Source of the DNA: Macrostomum lignano
Taxonomy: Eukaryota
Assembly: GCA_002269645.1 (NCBI GenBank)
Contig: NIVC01000307.1
Coordinates: 62,001-126,000, forward strand
Reading direction: 5' to 3'
Length of the DNA stretch: 64,000 nt
The first letter of the stretch is position 1; every line of letters starts with the position of its first letter. Positions 32,301 to 38,300 of the stretch are shown piece after piece. The notes beneath the pieces were generated by a model. The model searched no databases, was not told where the DNA came from, and worked only from the letters and a program-made list of their open reading frames with translations. The translations under genes and the position numbers were made by a program.

Positions 32301-35300
32301 GTTTGCTGACATGCTCGAAGTTTTCAAGCAAGATTTGGCTGGTGATGACTTTATGGCCGCGAAATTCGAGAGCGACAATATGCTCAAAGCGGCCCACACT
32401 CCCCCGGTGCGTGCATCCCGCATGACGGCTGAATTGTTGTTTAAGCACATCAACAAGATTGTACAGTCGGATGCCACTGTCCTGACGGGCAACTTTTCTA
32501 TCCGGTTGCTAAAGGCCTGGGTGCCTCGAGGTGGATGTGCTCTCGAGAACAAGCATCTAGAAGAGCGACACGCCTTCTCCAAGCACTATGTCCGCATCAC
32601 CAACTCGGACAAGAGATGCCTGCTGCGCGCTCTGGTCGTGGCCTGCGCCTACCTGCAATTCGTGGCCAAGTCCATCACCAAGCAGGTGTGGCACACAATC
32701 AAGGCCAATTCGCCCACGCAGACTAAGCTGGTGGCTGAGCTACAAATCGAAGCGGGTCTCTACTCGGTAAGTTTCTAGTATTTTTCCGATAAGAATTTTT
32801 ACACAGTATCATGGAATACTAAAATTTTCTGATAAGAATTTTTACGATAAGGAATACTAAAAGAATTTTTACACAGTATCATGGAGTACTAAAAGATATA
32901 TTTTCTGATAAGATTTTTACACAGTATCATGGAATACTAAAATTTTCTGATAAGAAATTTTACGATAAGGAATACTAAAAGAAATATTTTACCCTCCACA
33001 CAGACTCTTCAAACCGTCTCGCAGGCTGGTCCTTTCGGCGTGGATGCACTGCCCGAAGCGATCCGTGCCCTGAACCGGCTGCATCCAGGCCACGATTTTG
33101 GTGTACGCGTGTACCGGGCAGAGGAGGCCAACAGGTGCATCTTCAACCTGCCTGGCACCGAGATTCTGCACCTACACCTGGTCGAGCAGCACTTTAATGT
33201 GGTTACCAAGCTGCCTGCGTTTTTCGGCTCCGATCACTACTGCCCCAAGTGCGAGATGGCCTACGACTGCGCCAACGCCGAGCACAAGTGCGCTGATGCC
33301 TGCAGTACATGCAAGACTCCGGGCTCCAACTGTAAGGCAAACCGCGCATATGTAAGATGCCATGATTGCGGGCTAAATTGCTATAATGCTCAGTGCCTAG
33401 AAAATCACAAGCGCAAGAATAAGGCCGGCAGATCGCGCTGTGATTCGGTCCACGTTTGCGGCACGTGTGGCTATCTAGAAGAACTAAAAGTAGGCCAGCC
33501 CCCTGAGCATCAGTGTGGTTACGCCAAGTGCCCAGTCTGCAAGCAGTACGACGAAACTGCCACCCACGAGTGCTTTGTCACCCCGCCCAAAGCCAAAGAG
33601 TCTAGCGCCCCGTATGTTTACTATGATTTCGAGACGTACGTGGACTCTGGCAAGCAGCACCGGGTACACTTGGTTACGGCTGCCACCTCCTGCGAGGCGT
33701 GTCCCAAACTCTTCCCCAGGCCCCGCTGCAGCGTGTGCGGGGGACTACACAGCTCAGCCAATTGCATTGCGGGACGCGATTTGGCACTCGATTTCACGAG
33801 CTGTGTCTCGCACAATGACTGTGCCTGTGGGATGCGAGAGTTTGTATCTGTCGGGCCGCACTCTATCGATGCCTTTTACTGCTGGCTGACTAGTGTGTTC
33901 AAGCAGGGGGCAATTGCTATTGCGCACAATGGCTCTGCGTATGACGCATTCCTCCTGCTCGGCGCCCTACTCAACGGACTGGCCAAGAAGAAGCCGCAAG
34001 TGATCTTCCAGAACAGCCGCCTAATGTATATGAAGTGCGACAAGATCACCTTCAAGGACAGCCTCAATTTCATCCCTATTGGTCTGGCGCAATTCCCAAA
34101 GGCGCTTGGTTTGGGCACCCAACTGACCAAAGGAGATTTCCCGCACGTGTTTAACCAGCCACAAAATTGGGGGTACGTGGGACCCTACTGCTCAATTGAT
34201 ATGTATGGAGGAAAGAAAAACAAGCAGCACGACTCCATCGCAGACTGGCTGGCCAAGCAGGAGGGACAGGTGTTTAATTTCAATAAGGAGTACCTGGACT
34301 ACTGCCTGCAGGACACGTTAATTTTGCGGGAAGGCTGTCTGAAATATACCCGCCTGATTAAGGACATTTGCGGACTGGACGCATTTGTCCAATCCAACAC
34401 CATTGCGGGCTTGGCTATGGCTGTTTTCACCACCAAGTTTATGGAGCCCAACACTCTTGGGGTGATTTCCCGCCGGTCCGATGTACAGTCGCACAAGGCG
34501 CGGTGCTGGCTGGCACATTTAAATGCAACCGAGTTTGGCGGCCGGTTGCGGACAGCGGACTCGGGCGGCGAGGCTTTCGCCATGGGCCGTAAGGTCGACG
34601 GCTTCGACCCAGAGACCAGGACAGTGCTGCAGTTTCATGGCTGCTTCTTCCATGGCTGTCCCAAGTGCTTCCCCAACGGCGACGTGCTGCACCCGCTCAA
34701 GAACCAGCCAATGCGGGCGATTTATGAGGAGACTGAGCGCTTCACCCGGTTGCTCTCCACTGCATACAATGTGCGTGTTCTGTGGGAGCACGACTATCAG
34801 GACGAGGGAGCGCCAGTCCAGCAGCCTATTCGCCTGGAGGATGCCCTGTTTGGCGGCCGTACCGAGGCTTTTGTCCCGCATGCCGAGGCCACCGAGACTG
34901 TAGAGCTGCGCTATCGGGATGTGGTAAGTTTGTACACTTGTACACACAGTTGACATGCGTTTGAGTTTATCTTATCCTCTAATTCTCTATTATCCTTATC
35001 CCCTAGGTGTCGCTCTACCCGACTGTCAACAAGTTTGACAAGTACCCTGTCGGGCACCCGGTTCACCACCCCGAGCCTCATCTACTGGATGAGCAGCAGC
35101 TGGCCCGGTATTTTGGCATCGCCGAGGTGTCGATTCTGCCGCCAACCAATCTCCACATCCCGCTACTGCCCGCCAAGATTAACAAGAAGCTGGTTTTCGG
35201 CCTCTGCCGCGTCTGCATGGAGACCCAGTGCAGCAGCGAGTGTACACACACTGACGCTGAGAGAATGCTCCGCGGCACGTGGTCGACCCCAGAGCTCCAC

Positions 35301-38300
35301 AAGGCCCTGCAGTTGGGTTACAAGCTGCAGTCAGTTCATGCCCTGGCCTATTGGACCGAGACTCGCACGGGCCTGTTTGCAGATTATGTAAACACCTTTT
35401 TGAAGCTCAAAGCCGAGTCTAGCGGTTCGCCGGGGATGGCTGAGGACGCCAAGGCTGCCTACATGGCCAGCTTTTTCGAGCGCGAAGGCGTCCGGCTGGA
35501 AAAGGTGGAGGAGAATCCTGGCCTGCGCTTTGTTGCCAAGATTTTTCTAAACTCGTAAGTTTTTCTACTTGCAGTGGGGGCCATGTTTTTCTACTTACAT
35601 AAAATTTATTTTTCCCTGCAGGCTCTGGGGCAAGTTCTGCCAGCGCGACGACCTGACCTCCACAGAGATTGTGGACAGCTACGAGGCGTGGCTGCAGCGC
35701 CTGACAGACCCCTCGATCAAGGTCAAGTCGTGCGAGCCAATTGGGGAGAGCTTCATGATGCTCGAGTACAAGCCCCGATTTGGCGGTGCTGGCGAGCGGG
35801 CGTTCAAGTACGCCAATGTACCTATTGGCGTTTTCACCACCTCCCACGCCCGGCTGCGACTCTACGAGGCTCTGGAGGGTCTAGGAACCCGCGTCATTTA
35901 CGCCGATACCGATTCGTAAGTAATTTTTTCACTGTCTCTGTCTCTCTTTCTCCCCTTAACACTTTTTATCCTTCTCCTCCTCCCAGGGTCGTATACCGCT
36001 GCTCCCCGGGCGAGTACGAGCCTCCGGGCGGTTCGAGTTTGGGGCAGTGGACTGACGAGGTACCTGCTGGCTGCCGCATGGTACAGTTCACCACGGGAGG
36101 CCCCAAGCTCTACCGGTACGTGGTGGAGAAGCCCGACAGGTCGCTGTACTCGGTGCTCAAGTGCAAGGGCATCAGAGTCACCCCCGAGATTTCCGAGCGC
36201 GAGGACGAGCTGCAGGAAATTCTGCGCCACGGGGGCTCTGTCCGCCTGCCCCAGGCCCAGTTCAGGCGCGATAAGGCTAGCTGTACAATCCGGACCCTCG
36301 AGATGGACAAGACTTTCCAACGTGTAATGACTAAGAGGGTGTATGGGGCCGCTAGCCGCCCGTATGGCTTTCGTGAGTGAGTGAAAGATAAGGATCTATC
36401 TTTTTTACGCCTGGGATTCCCCTATGTGCCCACTTGGGGTCCCTTGACTCGTGGGGATGAAAATGGTTTTACGCCCGCACTGTACTTAGGGGTCCTTACT
36501 CATTTGGCACCTCCACTGTACATTGAGCGGGATCCCTTCAAGTGTTAAAACTCCCATTTGACACCTATTCCCTCGGGGCGGTTTGTGGCCCAGCGGTCCG
36601 CCTCTTGGAGTAGAACTCCTGACATGAACTTGCTGCGCTGATTAGCGTACTGATAGCGCAATCGAAATACGTTGTCCATTTTTCTAGCCCACTTGTGGGT
36701 TTAATTGTGTTGAAAGTATATCGGGTCATTAGGCCGTGAACCTCCCTTTTGGGATTTCCCCGAACCGCTTTTGGTTAAAATTTTTATGCACCTGCGGGTT
36801 AGACAATATTTACTCTTTAGTCGGTGCGACATTATTTACGCGTCTGTTGCACCTGGGCGTTTGCCTATAATCTGATTATACATGCGTGCCTGTATTATAC
36901 AACTACACCTTATGCATGCCTTGTAAACCTGCTTTATACATTAATCCGATATGTATCGAAAGTTCACTTTGTAAACCTGCTGTGTGTATTTCCACCTATG
37001 TAGCGCCTACAGTACCTGCTTTGTCTATTTCTGCCCATACACCTACATTGTGTGTTTTTGCTGCTCATATGCTCCAATATGTACATTTTAATATGCAATA
37101 TGCGTCATTATTCACCTACCAATATGTTTTATCTACATTTTTATGTAAATATACTCAATTTCACCTACTATAAGTAGTTTTCACTAGCCTAATATCGTTG
37201 ACTACATATCGGGAGAGTGGTAGAGTGTACATATCGGTAGAGTGTACACTCGGGGTGCCTGCGGCTCGGTAGAGTGTACACTCGGGGTGCCTGCGGCATG
37301 GGCGTCTGCGGCATGGGCGTCTGCGGCATGGGCGCCTACGGCTCGGGAGGGTGCGCCTGCGGCTCGGGAGGGTGTACATATCGGGGTACATATCGGTAGG
37401 GTGGGCATACATATCGGTAGGTGCGCCTGCGGCTGGGGAGGGTCGCCGGTGGCTGGGGAGGGTCGCCTGCGGCTGGACGGCGCTTGGCGCCACGCGCCTG
37501 CGGCGCGCGCGCGCCGAGCGCCGATATCGATACGGGTATCGATCACCTAGTGATCGGGGCGCCAGCCAATGAGAGGCGAGGAGGGTTGACACCCACCTCA
37601 CCTCCAAAATCAAGCCATCTGCCGTTGCTTAGTAGTTTCTTGACCCAATACTCAGATTACTGGCGTACGCGGGCTGGGGGTCAGAGAGGGGCCTGAAACC
37701 CCCCCCCCTTCCAGGTATTACCAATCGCTCTAACAAAAATTTCGCTCCAGAACTAACCACCAGTCTAAGAAACGGGACAGTCGCTTCTACCAAGAGATAG
37801 TGGCTTCTACCAAGAGACAGTCGCTTCTACCAAGAGATAGTGGCTTCCACCAAGAGACAGTGGCTTCTACCAAGAGACAGTGGGTTCTACCAAGAGACAG
37901 TAGCTTCTACCAAGAGACAGTGGGTTCTTCCAAGAGACAGTGGCTTCTACCAACAGACAGTGTCTTCTACCAAGAGACAGTGGCTTCTACCAAGAGATAG
38001 TGGCTTCTACCAACAGACAGTGTCTTCTACCAAGAGACAGTGGCTTCTACCAAGAGATAGTGGCTTCTACCAAGAGACAGTGGCTTCTACCAAGAGACAG
38101 TGGCTTCTACCAAGAGATAGTGGCTTCTACCAAGAGACAGTGGCTTCTACCAAGAGACAGTGGCTTCTACCAAGAGACAGTAGCTTCTACCAAGAGATAG
38201 TGGCTTCTACCAACAGACAGTGTCTTCTACCAAGAGATAGTGGCTTCTACCAACAGACAGTGTCTTCTACCAAGAGATAGTGGCTTCTACCAACAGACAG

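Follow-up and report, generated by a model that had tools for sequence, protein, structure and literature searches.

Spliceosomal introns interrupt all three catalytic motifs, A, B and C, of a polymerase gene in Macrostomum lignano. This raises the question of how introns came to lie in the most conserved part of the gene, and whether their position there does anything. The gene was studied in a window of 64,000 nucleotides (contig NIVC01000307.1, positions 62,001 to 126,000), to which all coordinates refer. It belongs to a transposable element with the following features.

28157..28162, plus strand: left target-site duplication, 6 bp, TTCTTG
28163..37636, no strand: Polinton-type element, 9.47 kb, ends ACTACT...AGTAGT
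28163..29043, plus strand: left terminal inverted repeat
29383..30438, minus strand: low-complexity open reading frame with no assigned function; a minus-strand intron near 29438-29528 has a joint in 3 of 4 runs
30489..31018, minus strand: PC4-like gene, weakly assigned (Pfam PC4 E 0.16, from another copy), frameshifted in the window copy
36739..37636, minus strand: right terminal inverted repeat
37637..37642, plus strand: right target-site duplication, 6 bp, TTCTTG

The element is placed among Polintons/Mavericks by its protein-primed family B polymerase (exons 4 and 5 exceed the PF03175 cut-off, and there are homologues). It shares with them this polymerase (pPolB) with motifs A-C, long terminal inverted repeats, 6-bp target duplications and a PC4-like gene (PMC8097293; bioRxiv 10.1101/2023.08.22.554363). 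The duplication flanks the window copy and eight of ten other copies, the remaining two being ambiguous. Copies measure 8.8-10.4 kb, apart from a single 15 kb copy enlarged by insertion. The element's ends are the reverse of the common Polinton (AGT)2..(ACT)2. It also differs from other Polintons in being only 9.5 kb long, in lacking integrase, ATPase, protease and capsid genes, and in its six spliceosomal introns; the intact elements of vertebrates are described as intronless (PMC8097293). The rve profile had no match among the element's open reading frames scanned, and no capsid, packaging ATPase or protease gene occurs among those of the 9.47-kb element. All four genes were found in a separate Polinton family of the same genome. 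Searching the genome for Pox_A32 gave no hit, a false negative, since an ATPase-like reading frame is present. No integrase-bearing second segment with the same ends was found (66 frames of L104, no Pfam match <0.01), and a loose search for the terminal pattern gave a signal no higher than its control. The spliced polymerase likely copies the element's own DNA, and insertion likely occurs in trans, through an integrase supplied by a different Polinton family of that genome. The carrier, too, is unusual: it is polymerase-only, looks active and apparently relies on a borrowed integrase.

The polymerase gene is organised as follows.

31258..36380, plus strand: pPolB gene, PF03175, 1276 codons, seven exons (31258-31318, 32081-32125, 32198-32766, 33004-34923, 35007-35554, 35622-35915, 35987-36380)
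31319..32080, plus strand: intron 1, 762 nt, phase 1, joined in 2 of 4 runs
32126..32197, plus strand: intron 2, 72 nt, phase 1, joined in 3 of 4 runs
32767..33003, plus strand: intron 3, 237 nt, phase 0, joined in 4 of 4 runs; position shared by the second subfamily
34924..35006, plus strand: intron 4 (A), in motif A (DV/VSLYP), 83 nt, phase 0
35555..35621, plus strand: intron 5 (B), in the Ser codon of motif B, 67 nt, phase 2; site common to unrelated Polinton polymerases
35916..35986, plus strand: intron 6 (C), in the Ser codon of motif C (DTDS), 71 nt, phase 2

The coordinates of introns A, B and C agree exactly with an earlier note on the sequence, which had placed them within the three motifs and described the 1.9-kb upstream exon as unbroken (exon 4, 1920 nt). 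The exons sum to 3831 nt and are free of internal stops. The three motif sites are kept in all copies compared (30 of 30) and also in a second subfamily, and exons 5-7 of 29 copies carry 74 synonymous against 18 non-synonymous variants, indicating purifying selection. The pPolB gene is intact, and its introns are ordinary and spliced by the host. A tandem-duplication origin was considered for intron A, which begins V-S-L-Y, and was rejected: five of the six introns start with GTAAGT, and the second subfamily differs.

Splicing at the predicted junctions is seen for A and B. Intron B is skipped in contigs of all six probable RNA runs (five studies) and intron A in five of the six (four studies); the runs are RNA by guess only, none being recorded as such, and contigs rather than reads were compared with the gene. 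Two unclassified runs cover both introns and have neither joint. For intron C, a single run has a contig ending at 35987 with exon-6 letters directly before it, and one run's contig reads across the intron unspliced. Intron C is never a listed joint because the listing passes over a repeat there. The three introns have the GT..AG ends and pyrimidine tract of spliceosomal (U2) introns, in addition to their removal in probable RNA runs, which for C is that one contig end.

The earlier note also proposed that introns concentrate at the most conserved sites, and their placement is indeed far from random. Were six introns placed uniformly, the chance of three striking one motif each would be 2.2e-5 for the motif text, or 5.3e-4 with windows of +-10 aa, the motifs having been named after the fact. 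Motifs A, B and C are the top three conservation windows among 48 relatives. In carriers of motif introns, 18 other frame-disrupting sites likewise favour conserved windows (0.584 vs 0.466, p 3e-4), also when only AG/ or G/G contexts are considered (p 1.5e-4), with the proviso that conserved regions make introns easier to detect. The intron-rich locus L131 by itself has no significant bias (p 0.06-0.08). Only frame-disrupting sites entered these counts, one of 25 being discarded; in variable regions the spliced aligner also proposes in-frame 'introns' that are false (reference 513/516, 849, 928, 1066, 1258).

Genes of this type had been described as usually continuous, which is true of most relatives but not of all. 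Thirteen of 13 metagenome loci, picked by a motif-plus-donor pattern and hence selected for a motif-B donor, have a GT..AG intron in phase 2 of the same Ser and resume in frame. With one of two genome-contig loci, this makes 14 loci outside the window with an intron at the same motif-B base. Of eight further loci, five were aligned and have no motif intron. Among 285 non-Macrostomum proteins, an R-stop/RY trace at the motif-B Ser was found in 19, against 187 that read through (about 9%), and at three other conserved Ser in 0, against 195, 182 and 68. Read-through was scored on gene calls, some of which may represent transcripts. The carriers do not form one clade (p-AU 1.5e-5, at least 8 changes, 12 DNA-verified carriers against 43 read-through relatives) in a tree of about 330 columns from a quick search, whose change counts do not separate gain from loss. 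In viral contigs, a scan with exon 5 found no relative, and scans for donor and acceptor patterns gave no matches, or in another case four chance matches. Introns scattered without regard to the motifs, which would have told against the proposal, were not found in relatives: the motif-B site is shared and conserved motifs are preferred.

At motifs A and C, the sites of relatives are close to those of the window gene but not identical. The motif-A intron is in phase 0 in the window gene, whereas in L123 and L128 it is in phase 2 of a Ser 5 nt downstream; L124 starts at the acceptor seen in those two loci. The motif-C intron is in phase 2 of Ser in the window gene and in phase 1 of Asp, with a GC donor, in L122. 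That sites a few bases apart differ suggests separate gains. Protein text hints at further motif-B sites, in phase 1 and at Trp and Lys; a search for the contig behind P0044 did not find it.

The observations show that the introns exist, that A and B are spliced, that placement is non-random, that unrelated elements share one motif-B base, and that several neighbouring sites are used in A and C. The explanation that fits them best, although we would give it slightly less than an even chance, is repeated gain or exchange of introns at the most conserved DNA of Polinton polymerases, where they were likely kept. Motif-coding stretches may be the only DNA alike enough for introns to be transferred by recombination between diverged Polinton families. 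An intron inside a catalytic motif would be lost only through exact excision, and would therefore outlast introns elsewhere. This combination of recombination and retention would parallel the accepted reasoning on inteins and on group I introns.

Alternatively, the motif-B intron could have been gained once, in an early Polinton polymerase, and passed on vertically, with exact loss in most lineages and separate gains of A and C. We regard this as possible, at perhaps half the weight of repeated gain. The identical base in the window gene and all 14 outside loci would follow directly. In P0233 and P0286, two proteins of one clade, the motif-B intron is absent while another intron of their relatives is apparently kept, which resembles exact loss. 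Intron sequences of distant carriers are unlike (1 of 210 pairs related, a near-duplicate locus); they bear no trace of recent spread and are compatible with great age. However, a single ancient gain demands loss in about 90% of the relatives sampled, as well as a switch between AGY and TCN in the split Ser codon, which is TC/G in the window gene and AG/Y outside. It also leaves unexplained the offset A and C sites, the protein-level alternatives in motif B and the conservation bias of other introns.

A further, rather unlikely explanation is homing, in which an endonuclease cuts intron-free motif DNA, so that a spliceosomal intron without a reading frame protects and spreads itself. A candidate nuclease lies within the polymerase.

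34465..34845, plus strand: Vsr-like nuclease domain within the polymerase, from its predicted fold (model pLDDT 89.9)

In Foldseek, the top two rows for this model were Vsr (E 2.9e-3 and 4.9e-3). The predicted fold resembles VIA (Z 8.2, rmsd 3.9, 105 aligned), with a mitoribosomal chain tied (Z 8.4), and the homing nuclease I-Bth0305I (Z 6.4, rmsd 4.2, 82 aligned); a sequence search of this part against the PDB gave no match. The pPolB2 of marine nematodes and molluscs carries a similar Vsr-type insertion (bioRxiv 10.1101/2023.08.22.554363), and a canonical Polinton of the same genome has an Endonuclease_7 domain. The nuclease would be such a Vsr-like or an HNH domain of Polinton polymerases, or that of a lost intein or intron. 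Intron C is 8 nt from the intein site YGD/TDS (PMC549080). Introns have been described at an intein codon (PMC3749507) and as spliceosomal homing introns of viruses (PMC12768974), and collaborative homing offers a further precedent (PMC10448857). On the other hand, the nuclease's target and activity are putative; a shared predicted fold says nothing of function. Motif-B introns, at 52-225 nt, are too short for a nuclease gene. The intron sites lie near intein sites, pol-a and pol-b among them, rather than at them. That nucleases embedded in Polinton polymerases drive such introns into the motifs, where the introns shield their carrier from cleavage by rival elements, is improbable; if true, it would be a spliceosomal counterpart of intein homing within animal genomes.

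Known intervening sequences offer partial parallels. Inteins of family B polymerases and group I introns also cluster at active-site motifs, with sites shared by distant genes (PMC549080, PMC2814812). The introns described here differ from these in being spliceosomal, non-coding and a few bases off the intein sites; they are AT-rich and mostly contain stops or frameshifts, and no intein was found at the intron sites in the relatives examined. Mirusvirus homing introns (PMC12768974) and the Bathycoccus PRP8 intron (PMC3749507) likewise interrupt core genes of viruses or occupy the site of a homing element, but the present introns have no nuclease gene and are found in a polymerase rather than in virion genes. 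Introners of dinoflagellate Polinton-like elements (PMC11957031) are like sequences at many sites, whereas the polymerase introns are unlike sequences at the same site; the single similar pair among the carriers compared sets them apart from introners.

The earlier note also raised the possibility that the introns are retained as a tissue- or small-RNA-controlled splicing switch, in the style of the P element, and this is very unlikely. Retention of B or C does read TCG-TAA, an immediate stop, but any phase-2 GTAA or GTGA donor gives one. The gene requires host splicing, as does any gene with coding introns: when retained, introns 1-3 halt translation within 3-14 codons and already make splicing obligatory, so that location within the motifs adds no dependence. 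Of 22 second-subfamily copies, 14 have a motif-A intron that keeps the reading frame and contains no stop. A and B are removed in nearly all probable RNA runs compared, and unspliced contigs, such as the one across intron C, could be DNA or pre-mRNA. Finally, an origin by chance, by a preference for protosplice sites or by transfer from the host's own polymerase genes is scarcely credible: although the motifs were chosen post hoc and most outside introns have AG/ or G/G exon ends, the probabilities run from 2e-5 to 5e-4, the bias survives the context control, none of the 67 MAG/R sites in the window gene is used by its six introns, and host genes that by their motifs would be of delta and alpha type are unbroken in motifs A, B and C, and that of zeta type in A and C.

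The intron pattern of these polymerases contrasts with reports that spliceosomal introns have no preference for conserved sites (PMC2814812) and that intact Polinton genes are intron-free. A nematode Polinton survey required open reading frames of at least 900 aa (bioRxiv 10.1101/2023.08.22.554363), so that intron-split pPolB genes would escape it. Virus surveys based on open reading frames thus miss a sizeable share of Polinton diversity. About a tenth of the relatives sampled, spread across the tree, have an intron at one and the same base of motif B, a hot spot that offers a tractable system for studying how and where introns are gained.

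The polymerase gene of the window comprises seven exons summing to 3831 nt with no internal stops, and both exon 4 and exon 5 score above the PF03175 cut-off. The earlier note had placed its last three introns in the catalytic motifs, and their positions were confirmed, each having GT..AG ends:

34924-35006, intron A, in motif A
35555-35621, intron B, in motif B
35916-35986, intron C, in motif C
28163-37636, the carrier element, 9.47 kb, flanked by a 6-bp target duplication and bounded by terminal repeats of roughly 0.9 kb

The suspicion that three motif hits among six introns exceed random placement was also upheld. 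The chance that three of six randomly placed introns strike one motif each is p 2.2e-5, or p 5.3e-4 with generous windows. Of all nine-residue windows in 48 relatives, the three with the highest conservation are motifs A, B, and C, and the introns use none of the 67 MAG/R contexts in the gene. The three-motif placement is a real, non-random feature.

UniRef assigns near-identical proteins to Macrostomum lignano. Copies of the element in the genome are 88–100% identical (DNA search, 40 of 122 candidates scored), and the 6-bp duplication recurs in eight of ten other copies. Introns A, B, and C keep their sites in all 30 fetched loci, the window's own included, and differ in length. Variants in exons 5–7 are 74 synonymous versus 18 non-synonymous, and these exons are free of indels and stops in 19 of 29 copies. 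A second subfamily, 71% identical in exon 5, shares the intron sites, with unrelated intron sequences: of 25 loci, 22 have intron A and 21 have intron B, and all three aligned copies have intron C. A third lineage, protein P0040, is about 60% identical to each subfamily; its gene call begins at motif A and ends at the motif-B Ser, which would fit the presence of both introns A and B.

Beyond the polymerase, the element carries a gene with weak resemblance to PC4 and one unknown ORF; neither integrase nor capsid was found among its ORFs. One second-subfamily copy (L077-L078, contig C1263) pairs the PC4-like gene with an ORF that we take, from its motifs, to be dUTPase-like. Two further families were found in the same contig set (G000):

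L184-L202 (contigs C2301, C3189, C592, C10, C130, C211, C1297, C3389), canonical Polinton family encoding an integrase, a protease, and ATPase-like and capsid-like products
L101-L108 and L110-L115, polymerase-less family, mostly 8–9.4 kb, one 6.7 kb, sharing its ends with the window element

The canonical integrase is intron-free, and the polymerase is of another, Endonuclease_7-bearing type, whose frame continues unbroken across motifs B and C in all four copies. The capsid-like gene, without a Pfam match, is presumably such. In three of the eight regions the DNA forms a giant palindrome holding two integrase genes in inverted orientation. This family bears the common Polinton end motifs; the window element's ends (ACTACT..AGTAGT, 28163-28168 and 37631-37636) are their reverse. 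Because of its 6-bp duplications, we infer that the window element is integrated in trans. The polymerase-less family (14 of 20 fetched end-paired stretches) forms near-perfect palindromes, whose arms are 99% identical and reach 4.6 kb, and has 6-bp duplications wherever both ends were located; a Pfam scan of L104 gave no match. Element ends also enclose what we take to be a retroelement-like ORF pair, present twice in tandem (L109), and a mariner-like transposase ORF (L116). Elsewhere in the window, the minus strand at 54274-55809 has open frames 376 and 134 codons long, with no Pfam match, and the remainder is mostly tandem repeats.

Judged from sequence, an intron at motif B is a general pattern beyond Macrostomum. 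Among 289 non-Macrostomum homologues, gene-call ends or pyrimidine-rich inserts are far commoner there than elsewhere. A phase-2 donor splitting an AGY Ser codon leaves a trace in the protein (N, followed by R-stop or RY); 19 of 285 proteins show it at the motif-B Ser, versus 187 reading through, and none at three other conserved Ser. One trace-bearing cluster contains a Porites lobata gene model reading directly across the motif, and another protein comes from Planococcus citri. A motif-plus-donor pattern retrieved 13 metagenome loci; in all of them the frame resumes beyond a GT..AG intron whose position matches that of intron B to the base. A fourteenth locus was one of two genome-contig matches. 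Some of these carriers have a motif-A intron 5 nt, or a motif-C intron 4 nt, from the window's. Eighteen further frame-disrupting sites in carriers are biased to conserved windows (p 3e-4; p 1.5e-4 against AG/ or G/G contexts; intron-rich L131 by itself, p 0.06–0.08). In carrier L122, a GC-AG intron (about 1676-1850, oriented) interrupts motif C within the codon for the second Asp of DTD, and carrier L124 has unbroken rve-chromo integrase and A32-like ATPase frames.

Carriers are scattered over an 80-row tree. A test of 12 carriers verified in DNA against 43 proteins that read through rejects a single carrier clade (p-AU 1.5e-5, eight or more changes); the set leaves aside L125 with its frameshift, L129 and L130, which are short, the later-found L209, and every row inferred from protein. 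One ancient gain followed by many losses is unlikely. Two proteins look like exact losses of the motif-B intron, and change counts on the tree cannot distinguish gain from loss. Gain more than once is favoured because sites in A and C are offset and the motif-B Ser is split as TC/G versus AG/Y. Host polymerase genes were rejected as intron donors.

Nuclease-driven homing is somewhat more doubtful. It draws on a Vsr-like fold, a putative nuclease, predicted within the window polymerase, and on published precedents: mirusvirus spliceosomal homing introns (PMC12768974), collaborative homing (PMC11296320, PMC10448857), and an intron at an intein codon (PMC3749507). Other sources describe introners in Polinton-like elements (PMC11957031), HNH and VSR insertions in polymerases, with a 900-aa ORF filter (bioRxiv 10.1101/2023.08.22.554363), a suggested intein-invasion origin of nuclease insertions (PMC11161782), polymerase inteins (PMC549080), and spliceosomal introns that do not prefer conserved sites (PMC2814812); PMC3239194 is a further source. 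Intact vertebrate Mavericks are described as intronless in PMC8097293, which gives the Polinton end motifs. No relevant intron passage was found in PMC8502044, and spliceosomal introns in pPolB are not mentioned in what was found in PMC12220804 and 10.64898/2026.07.28.741278. A literature search, with most subscription journals outside it, found no paper on spliceosomal introns at Polinton polymerase catalytic motifs; supplements or Repbase entries may mention them.

In run contigs, intron B is spliced out in six of six runs presumed to be RNA and intron A in five; both joints are absent from two unclassified runs whose contigs span the introns. The exon 6–exon 7 joint (intron C) is a single contig end, and joints for introns 1, 2, and 3 appear in 2/4, 3/4, and 4/4 runs. 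The P-element-like splicing switch proposed in the earlier note is very improbable, since introns 1–3, if retained, already stop translation within 3–14 codons. A tentative but plausible account is that introns would have been repeatedly gained or laterally exchanged at motif-coding DNA in these polymerases, and then retained there.
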